A stretch of DNA of 45,014 bases, taken from Parcubacteria group bacterium Gr01-1014_13. GTDB taxonomy: Bacteria; Patescibacteriota; Patescibacteriia; Magasanikbacterales; GWA2-37-8. The notes below the pieces were generated by a model. The model was given only the letters and a program-made list of their open reading frames with translations. It ran no database searches and was not told the DNA's origin. Within the stretch, counting starts at the first letter, position 1; each line of letters opens with the position of its first letter. Position numbers and translations under genes: made by a program. Below, one piece after another: positions 34,112 through 36,393 of the stretch. The DNA is taken from assembly GCA_007376295.1 (NCBI GenBank), contig VMGB01000003.1:137106-182119 (forward strand). Direction: 5' to 3'.

Positions 34112-34636
34112 TTAAACTCCTGTATGGATATCAATTGTTTTGCCTTCTGGCAAAGTAACAATTGCTTTTTTATAATCATTTCTCTTTCCCATGCTGCGGC
34201 CAAAACGCACTCGGCGTCCTTCAATATTGGCCACGTTAACGTTCGCTGGCTTTACACCATAAACTTCTTCAATCGCTGTCTTGATCTGATTTTTGTTAGC
34301 AGATCGTACAACTACAAAACTGTATTTATTCTTGCTTTCAGCGATAGCGCTCTTTTCAGTAATAAGCGGTTTTACTAAAACTTTGAAAGCAGTTGTATTT
34401 TTACCTAAAAATTTAGTTGCCTGCTCAGCTTTCTTCTCAGATTTCTTTTCAACATGAGCATGACCAGCATGGTCCTCGTGGACTTTCGCGGCTTTAACTT
34501 TCGATTCTTTCTTCTCTACTTTCTTCTCTGCCTTCTTTTCTTTGGCAACCACAACAGGCGCGGATTGCTTTTCGCCAATCTGGCTCAATTGCCCTTTCTT
34601 TTGTTTTCTGTGCAAAAAGTTATTTAGCAATCCCAT
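34112..34636 (-). CDS. rplW: 50S ribosomal protein L23 (uL23) with an N-terminal Lys/Glu-rich extension of about 80 aa
   Basis: The C-terminal 95 aa match L23 (LVKPLITEKS...KYSFVV...NKNQIK.AIE..Y.VKP..VN). Start chosen at the ATG at 34634-34636, just beyond the rplD stop. The track ORF extends to 34660. Confidence 0.88.
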   Translation of the reverse strand: MGLLNNFLHRKQKKGQLSQIGEKQSAPVVVAKEKKAEKKVEKKESKVKAAKVHEDHAGHAHVEKKSEKKAEQATKFLGKNTTAFKVLVKPLITEKSAIAESKNKYSFVVVRSANKNQIKTAIEEVYGVKPANVNVANIEGRRVRFGRSMGKRNDYKKAIVTLPEGKTIDIHTGV

Positions 34637-34637
34637 A

Positions 34638-35267
34638 TTATTTATTAAAAACTTTTTCAACAGTCTCTACACCAGCTCGGCTGATTAAGACAGTTGATTT
34701 TGATAACAAATCCATCACGCTAAGATCTTCAGCTCTGACAGTCTTTACTGCTTTTAAGTTCTTAGTCATGCGCAAAACTGTTTCATTTTTACCAGGTGTA
34801 AGCAACAAAAATGATTTTGCTTTTACTGGCAATACTTTTAAGAAATTCGCAAACAATTTTGTTTTTGGTTCAGCAAAATTAAAATCTTCAACTACTACCA
34901 AAGCGCTATTTCTAGCTCTGTCGCTCAAGCACATCTTAAGCGCTAAACGCTTGGTTTTCTTATTGATTTTTGTTTTGTAATTACGAACAGACAATGGACC
35001 AAAGGTCACGCCGCCGCCCTTCCAAATTGGAGAACGAATAGAACCATGACGAGCTCGGCCTGTGCCTTTTTGTGCCCAAGGCTTCTTGCCACCACCTCTT
35101 ACTTCGCCTTTACTCTTTGTATCAGCCCAAGGTTCTCTTTGGTTGTTGGTTTGAGCAGTAAAAACTCCGTGCACTACTGTTGGGTTGGATTTAACACCAA
35201 AAATACTGTCTGAAAGATTCATTTCACCAGTTTCTTTTCCTTCTAGGTTGTAAACTTTAACTTTCAT
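34638..35267 (-). CDS. rplD: 50S ribosomal protein L4 (uL4)
   Basis: KSKGEVRGGGKKPWAQKGTGRARHGSIRSPIWKGGGVTFGP. Confidence 0.95.
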   Translation of the reverse strand: MKVKVYNLEGKETGEMNLSDSIFGVKSNPTVVHGVFTAQTNNQREPWADTKSKGEVRGGGKKPWAQKGTGRARHGSIRSPIWKGGGVTFGPLSVRNYKTKINKKTKRLALKMCLSDRARNSALVVVEDFNFAEPKTKLFANFLKVLPVKAKSFLLLTPGKNETVLRMTKNLKAVKTVRAEDLSVMDLLSKSTVLISRAGVETVEKVFNK

Positions 35268-35275
35268 ATAAAATA

Positions 35276-35874
35276 TTATACTGCTACAACTAGCTCTGGT
35301 ACTGCCTCTACTTCTGGAGCAGAATTTTCAACAACGTTTGTTTTTAATTTCAATTCTCCCTCACCGCTAATTAACAACAAACCATTTCGGCCACCTGGAA
35401 CTGCGCCTTTAATATAGATTTCATTTACTTCCGGGTGAACTTCAATAATTTCCAAATTCTTTACAGTAATTCTTTCGCCACCCATGCGGCCACCCATTTT
35501 TTGGCCTTTGAAAACTCTTTGTACAAACCTTTACCTTTTGATTCACCTACTACAACAACTTTGTCGCCAGTAGAGAATGTTTCTACAGTAATGGTATCGC
35601 CGCGTTTTACTTGGGCATCAGTTTCAATTTTAAAATCTTTCAAATTTCGAACCTTGTCCAGATCTTTTAAATGGCCGACTTGAGGCTGGGCCAATCGAGT
35701 TTCCTTTGTTTCGTCAAACCCAATCTGAACGGCTTTTAGGCCATTCTTTTTAACATTTTCTCTGACTTCTACAATTTGGCAAGGACCAGCTTGAACTTTC
35801 GTTACTGGCACCACTACCCCGTTAGGTAGAAACACCTGAGTCATGCCTATTTTTTTACCTAAAATAAATTTCAT
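35276..35874 (-). pseudogene. rplC: 50S ribosomal protein L3 (uL3) gene, interrupted by a frameshift plus loss of about 35 conserved codons
   Basis: The N-terminal ORF (35461-35874) reads MKFILGKKIGMTQVF...GESKGKG and then leaves the frame. The C-terminal ORF (35276-35497) is L3-like; its frame is open from about 35529 and reads RFVQRVFKGQKMGGRMGGERITVKNLEIIEV. The frames differ by 1 nt at about 35521-35530. Confidence 0.8.
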
Positions 35875-35971
35875 ATAATACGGTGAAAACTGTAGATTTT
35901 TTTGGTTTAAAAAACTAGAAACAACAACTTGCTTTTTAATTGGCCGCAGTCAACAAATTTTTTCTAACGAA

Positions 35972-36019
35972 ATCTTACTATAATTCTATTTTTTTGTCAA
36001 TACCCGCCTTTGTGGCGGG
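35972..36019 (-). promoter_or_regulatory. hairpin (CCCGCC-acaaa-GGCGGG) directly after the rpsJ stop, followed by internal promoter TTGACA-N17-TAAGAT for rplC and downstream genes
   Basis: Read directly on the minus strand. It leaves a leader of about 95 nt before the rplC ATG. Confidence 0.5.
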
Positions 36020-36024
36020 AGAGA

Positions 36025-36393
36025 TTACATCTTAATCTCAATATCCACACCAGCTGGAACCTGCAAACTCATCAATGCATCCACGGTTTTAGCATTGGAA
36101 TTTACAATATCTATCAAGCGTTTATGGACTCGCATTTCGTATTGTTCGCGGGCATCTTTATGCACAAAAGTAGAGCGATTTACTGTAAACTTAGTCTTTT
36201 CTGTAGGCAAAGGAATAGGTCCAACCACTTGAGCGCCATGTCTTTCGGCAGTCTCAATAATATTTTTAGTGGCTTGGTCTATAATTTTGTTATCATAAGC
36301 ACGAATCTTAATTCTGATTCGGCTAATAACTTCCGCGTCTGGTGTTGCAGTTTTGTGAGTCGCAGTTTTCTTTTGTGCCGGTGTTGCAGTCAT
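36025..36393 (-). CDS. rpsJ: 30S ribosomal protein S10 (uS10) with a short N-terminal extension
   Basis: [40 protein letters not shown]. Start chosen at MTATPAQKK (ATG at 36391-36393). Confidence 0.92.

Follow-up and report, generated by a model that had tools for sequence, protein, structure and literature searches.

Does the bacterium represented by the assembly of Parcubacteria group bacterium Gr01-1014_13 (GCA_007376295.1) carry a broken gene for ribosomal protein uL3, or does the break belong to the sequence as it was deposited? The question is raised by the window, i.e., the whole 45,014-nt stretch of DNA analysed here (contig VMGB01000003.1, positions 137,106–182,119 of the forward strand), in which rplC lies on the minus strand at 35276–35874 and, according to the ORF listing and the translation, is split over two reading frames. 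uL3 is an essential protein. A preliminary description of the locus, which left the strand unstated, reported that the gene is broken over two frames with a conserved segment absent, and offered four explanations without choosing among them: a collapse in the assembly or the consensus, a pseudogene with another copy to make up for it, a split L3 expressed as two polypeptides, and a recoding event. The evidence presented below leads us to conclude that the break is very probably a local collapse in the deposited assembly, and that the uL3 gene of the organism itself is ordinary and intact.

rplC in the window and in relatives

The first of the two frames forms an ORF (35461–35874, minus strand) of 137 amino acids, which is L3-like for 116 residues up to a GKG motif and ends in a tail of 21 residues that bear no relation to L3. 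In the −1 frame an open stretch of 84 amino acids, which begins at 35530 and has its stop at 35276–35278, encodes the C-terminal part of L3, and the two frames overlap by 70 nt (35461–35530). The family model TIGR03625 (L3_bact, 202 positions) aligns at positions 2–116 with residues 4–117 of the first piece (E 6.4e-29, 101.2 bits), and at positions 151–201 with residues 4–54 of the second (E 6.5e-17, 62 bits). Model positions 117–150, which correspond to the conserved extended loop, are absent from the deposited rplC, and the translation together with this missing segment bears out the break as it was first described. Either piece scores below the curated cut-off of 142.9 bits and, unlike a bacterial uL3, the deposited gene has neither the loop nor one continuous frame. 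Alignment of the fragments to PF00297, which had been proposed as a check, was performed and neither fragment matched, whereas TIGR03625 matched both; the Pfam model gave no match in the window's own genome, and is too insensitive for these rplC pieces. In other respects the locus is what would be expected of bacterial uL3. Both pieces match the family in order and are flanked by rpsJ and rplD in an S10-type operon with the gene order tuf-rpsJ-rplC-rplD-rplW-rplB, which identifies this as the canonical rplC locus; EF-Tu, S10, L4, L23 and L2 all score above their family cut-offs.

Ahead of its L23 domain, the uL23 protein of the window (34112–34660, minus strand) has an N-terminal extension of ~90 residues with a high content of Lys, Glu and Ala; the L23 family match begins at residue 89–93 of 182.

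Comparison by blastn and MAFFT with the rplC genes of 13 genomes of the same genus, to which the window is 69–85% identical at the nucleotide level over the first 350 nt, reveals one uninterrupted gap of 97 columns in the window (Table 1). Since 97 nt amount to 32 codons plus 1 nt, this single gap accounts for both the loss of the loop and the change of frame, and it is because of the gap that the 21 out-of-frame codons are read. The preliminary description had proposed a 1-nt frame change combined with the loss of about 35 codons; both effects are present, but they have their origin in one lesion and not in two. Among the congeners, the missing stretch is the most conserved 97-nt bin of rplC (86% mean pairwise identity versus 65–84% for the other bins), and also the bin that is richest in runs of at least 31 nt that are identical between species.

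Table 1 Features at the rplC locus, in window coordinates. Record coordinates refer to record 5 of the contigs from sequencing run X1.
Feature	Position	Strand	Basis
rplC 3′ part, C-terminal uL3 and stop, −1 frame relative to the 5′ part	35276–35525	−	TIGR03625 positions 151–201
3′ part of rplC in the wrong frame, 21 out-of-frame codons and stop	35461–35526	−	Homology ends at residue 116
Putative collapse junction 1, 97 nt missing	35525–35526		Gap relative to relatives, and X1 contig; one base fits either side
rplC codons 1–116, N-terminal uL3 to GKG, in frame	35527–35874	−	TIGR03625 positions 2–116; 84–85% nucleotide identity to the closest congeners
3′ half of terminator-like stem and T run	35909–35928	−	Alignment and consensus fold of 13 congeners; 5′ partner in the missing 157 nt
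Putative collapse junction 2, rpsJ-rplC spacer, ~157 nt missing	35935–35937		X1 record 5; three bases fit either side
Promoter-like TTGACA-17 nt-TAAGAT, start of leader, retained part	35972–36000	−	By eye; the −35 and a −10 motif align in 13 of 13 congeners
X1 record 5, block 1 (record 1–107)	35419–35525		0 mismatches
X1 record 5, block 2 (record 204–616)	35525–35937		0 mismatches
X1 record 5, block 3 (record 771–1036)	35935–36200		0 mismatches

If the short gene were a natural form, it might be expected in relatives, and a comparison of this kind had been suggested from the outset. TIGR03625 was searched in 31 genomes, i.e., the window's own and 30 relatives, with a match in 29 and a score over the cut-off in 27, and all 27 of the latter cover model positions 2–201 or 2–202 in one open frame devoid of stops. 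In the other genomes of the same genus rplC is intact in 13 of 15, all 13 being contiguous across the gene, translated in one frame, and without a short in-frame junction. The remaining two are fragmentary assemblies: G002 (80% complete, 150 contigs), where rplC is divided between two contigs and lies at the end of each, and G007 (84% complete), which has no L3 match. No short or split form of L3 was thus seen among the relatives. The source names recorded for relatives at 86% identity or less are those of Candidatus Magasanikbacteria, within Patescibacteria.

A wider comparison, with the 120 best database homologues of the N-terminal piece, gives a similar result, in that 114 of them span the loop region without interruption. 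The exceptions among these best 120 are the fragment of the window itself (P0001); P0013 and P0017, which are singletons on contigs of 1029 and 1441 nt and have tails without homology; P0043 and P0060, which simply end; and P0052, which has an odd tail of 10 residues. In P0013 and P0017, both from public assemblies of close relatives, the break in L3 falls within this loop region or close to it, at different points. The data suggest that metagenome assembly in this clade runs into difficulty repeatedly at the conserved stretch of rplC.

The damage is confined to the rplC region of the window. In a tblastn comparison of ORFs of at least 80 amino acids from six loci of three congeners (matches below 45% best identity excluded), 90 ORFs had hits in the window, and only the three rplC orthologues matched in two pieces that lie in different frames with the middle missing. 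One other two-piece match consists of a full-length match and a paralogous one, and the other matches of low coverage differ solely at their termini. With no other broken gene within the 45-kb window, the error is local and not systematic.

A second rplC, which could relieve the broken gene of its function, was sought throughout the window's own genome (940,166 nt in 9 contigs, completeness given as 100), and the L3 family searches returned the two fragments only. The explanation by a pseudogene with a second copy thereby loses its footing in the assembled genome, and would need an rplC that went unassembled or unbinned. An assembly in 9 contigs could indeed be missing something; the broken gene, however, occupies the very tuf-rpsJ-rplC-rplD-rplW-rplB context in which the relatives keep their functional copy, and we consider a compensating copy of this kind extremely unlikely.

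Contigs of the likely source run across the junctions

Twenty sequencing runs contain words of the locus; all are represented by Logan contigs, i.e., by assembled sequences that omit rare variants and not by raw reads, and none is an RNA run. One of them, X1, comes from a groundwater metagenome; it contains 0.97 of the locus words that were sampled and was flagged as a possible source. It is likely the source of the deposited genome, although the genome might derive from another sample or from a co-assembly. By our estimate, a word share of 0.97 rather than 1.0 is approximately what is expected when junction-spanning words are lost at two places.

Contigs from runs X1–X4 were aligned to positions 34900–36200 of the window. 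Record 5 of X1 (1441 nt) matches the window in three blocks without a single mismatch (Table 1), and between the blocks it has additional letters, known by number and position, at two places: 97 letters at exactly 35525, and ~157 letters at 35935–35937 in the rpsJ-rplC spacer. The number of extra letters at the first site equals the length of the gap against the 13 congeners and also the length that restores the frame. Since the contig contains these 97 letters, the loss of loop and frame is a fault of the assembly rather than of the gene itself. Longer sequence in the source data had been named in the preliminary description as the sign of an artefact, and among its four explanations it is the collapse that the X1 contig supports.

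Three of the eight X1 records, apparently records 1, 4 and 5, are at least 99% identical to the window with 0 other letters, and none of the X1 contigs at this level of identity crosses 35525 or 35936 in the manner of the window, a statement that applies to contigs, from which rare variants have been dropped. Two runs from other studies contain relatives at ~93–94% identity that depart from the window at the same places: immediately before 35525, 79 letters of record 14 of X3 (a second study) do not agree with the window, and immediately before 35935 the same is true of 246 letters of record 24 of X4 (a third study). The minus-strand records 13, 15 and 16 of X3 also end at the junctions, with the side of the unaligned letters ambiguous, and we rely on the plus-strand records 5, 14 and 24 alone. 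X2, a run from the study that also produced X1, lacks a contig covering 35296–35647 and is thus uninformative about the junction. An exact 48-nt pattern beside the junction gave 0 matches in JGI metagenome contigs, a collection from which records of the window's own genome may have been left out. A joint of 35517 to 36021 in X1 (one contig, depth 6.89, side 22) is regarded as spurious, the short side being a match that stems from a different organism.

The contig data also bear on the possibility that the deposited form is a real deletion allele, in which the 97-nt deletion in rplC and the 157-nt deletion in the leader would be present in part of the population or in another sample, the gene being dead either in a lineage that forms a minority or in damaged DNA, and were picked up by the assembler. 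A minority short allele could escape detection because contigs drop rare variants, the lack of long repeats at the junctions is as could occur with a real illegitimate deletion, and the 137-residue fragment P0001 is part of the deposited protein set, so that the short form is the one that was submitted. We nevertheless judge a real deletion to be improbable: a single X1 contig of the organism spans the site, it is of the long form, and its depth (21.9) is on par with that of neighbouring X1 contigs (22.3 and 27.9); a haplotype is unlikely to have acquired two independent deletions at a distance of 410 nt from each other; the genome offers no second copy of an essential gene; and the gene is intact in every one of the 13 contiguous congeners.

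As regards the way in which a collapse in the assembly may have come about, two stretches, 97 nt in rplC and ~157 nt in the rpsJ-rplC spacer, would have been lost during assembly or post-processing. Metagenome assembly graphs break at stretches that are shared with co-occurring relatives. Our guess is that contigs broke at such stretches here as well, that the flanking contigs were joined across the resulting gaps, and that the gaps were then closed to zero length. The coincidence of the missing 97 nt with the most conserved bin of rplC, rich in long shared runs, fits a break at sequence shared between species. The 9 contigs of the assembly contain no N runs, which would be traces of scaffolding gaps, and neither junction has a long repeat, so the gap-closing step remains a guess. 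A repeat able to explain the collapse was sought at both junctions, and the search returned microhomology of 1 nt at the rplC junction and 3 nt at the spacer junction, and hence no simple repeat explains it.

Set beside local misassemblies or collapsed gaps in metagenome-assembled genomes, the window has much in common with them. A short internal stretch of a single-copy essential gene is gone from the window and kept in the likely-source contig, a second stretch is missing nearby, the lost pieces are the most conserved local sequence, and a second assembly of the same genus, G002, breaks its contigs inside rplC. It differs from them in that its junctions have no N run or long repeat, and in that no other gene in the window is broken.

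Recoding and split-gene readings of the short sequence

The overlap of the two frames leaves room for a different reading, namely that the short sequence is real and yields a functional uL3, loop-less or split, by a −1 ribosomal slip or as two polypeptides. The candidate for the slip is a C-AAA-AAA-T run near 35503, an A6 run with a Lys-Lys codon pair, and the candidate start of a second polypeptide is an internal ATG at 35497, which is preceded by AAAGG. Programmed −1 ribosomal frameshifting is exemplified by dnaX and IS elements, and the window resembles such cases in having overlapping frames that need a −1 shift and an A-rich run within the overlap. The resemblance goes no further, however, as the overlap (35530–35461) contains no canonical X XXY YYZ heptamer, in accordance with what had been noted before. 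Relaxed A-site triplets are present in the overlap at 35530, 35512 and 35503, and two canonical heptamers in the zero frame lie only far upstream, at 35671 and 35647.

The two candidate signals have a simpler origin. The A run and the ATG are ordinary QKM codons that stand in frame in the closest relatives, and are therefore not evolved signals; the AAAGG and the internal ATG are present as reported, but the ATG specifies the Met of a QKMGG motif common to the closest relatives and does not mark a split gene. Furthermore, the arrangement is found in no relative, the contig from the likely source is full length, and the change of frame stems from a 97-nt gap that is missing from that contig. 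The recoding and split-L3 options of the preliminary description are accordingly not upheld, and we attach almost no probability to a functional uL3 being made from a real short sequence.

The spacer between rpsJ and rplC

The second gap, which lies 410 nt from the gap in rplC, was overlooked in the preliminary description. The rpsJ-rplC spacer measures 150 nt in the window versus ~250–460 nt in the 13 congeners, in which it is occupied by a leader. The corresponding segment of the window (35875–36024, minus strand) is shortened; examples from relatives are L018:184–491, L015:137–491 and L023:1104–1331 (minus strand). Alignment and consensus folding of the 13 congeners delineate a promoter-like TTGACA/−10 pair, a long hairpin that is interrupted by internal loops of invariant sequence and, at the 3′ end just before rplC, a terminator-like stem of 14 bp with a T run behind it.

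Covariation lends support to the hairpin: across 14 sequences, which form 13 distinct rows, pairing is kept in 97.2% of cells and both sides have changed in 9 of the 19 pairs, while 0 of 500 shuffles reach any of the measures and slid controls have 34–50% of cells paired. A covariance model of the leader, R1, has exactly one match in each of the 13 congeners, with scores of 78–101 bits. Within the family it matches 38 of 59 genomes, and the order contributes 3 others, which gives 41 of 151 genomes overall. In 5 of 5 distant matches that were checked, the match lies 115–225 nt upstream of rplC on the same strand. In the window's own genome R1 has no match, and its presence in 13 of 13 other congeners indicates that the second missing stretch, as the first, is unique to the deposited assembly. 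This second putative collapse removes the core of the conserved leader RNA; the retained parts are given in Table 1.

In E. coli, the S10-operon leader mediates attenuation by L4. Similarly, the leader of the relatives is structured and places a terminator-like hairpin ahead of rplC-rplD-rplW-rplB, and it is probably an autoregulatory attenuator for these four genes. L4 as its ligand is a guess by analogy with E. coli. In contrast to the E. coli leader, it is located between rpsJ and rplC with a promoter-like site of its own, and not upstream of rpsJ; moreover, it has no counterpart in Rfam, and in the window its core is missing owing to the second collapse. The search of Rfam 15 with nine loci of relatives at E ≤ 1 gave no match beyond sub-threshold chance hairpins; these hits, among them plastid psbA 3′UTR and miRNA models, were rejected as chance. 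A described rplC leader from Parcubacteria was not found in the articles searched, and the part of the table of Eckert and Weinberg (2020, PMC7247131) that was covered contains no such leader.

A GC-rich hairpin with a 6-bp stem and a loop of 4–5 nt can be seen by eye at 36003–36019 (minus strand), directly after the rpsJ stop (36025–36027) and directly before the −35 element of the rplC leader promoter. It may be the terminator of the tuf-rpsJ transcript.

The two-frame, loop-less rplC is to be regarded as a common kind of sequence error with no real biology behind it, and its consequences are in the first place a matter of data quality, as a species-representative assembly carries a broken essential marker gene. 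uL3 is one of the ribosomal proteins that are commonly concatenated for trees of candidate-phyla bacteria, and in this assembly the marker is invisible to PF00297. With the core of the leader lost to the same local error, the genome is in addition a false negative for the leader RNA. A short form, if real, would be remarkable. The loop of uL3 reaches the peptidyl-transferase centre, and if the short form existed in part of the groundwater Parcubacteria population and gave rise to a loop-less uL3 through a −1 slip or two polypeptides, which we hold to be very unlikely, the uL3 in the ribosome of these bacteria would be radically trimmed. This is not where the evidence points, and the deposited sequence, taken at face value, would wrongly suggest that uL3 is pseudogenised, split or recoded in this lineage, or that its ribosome is reduced.
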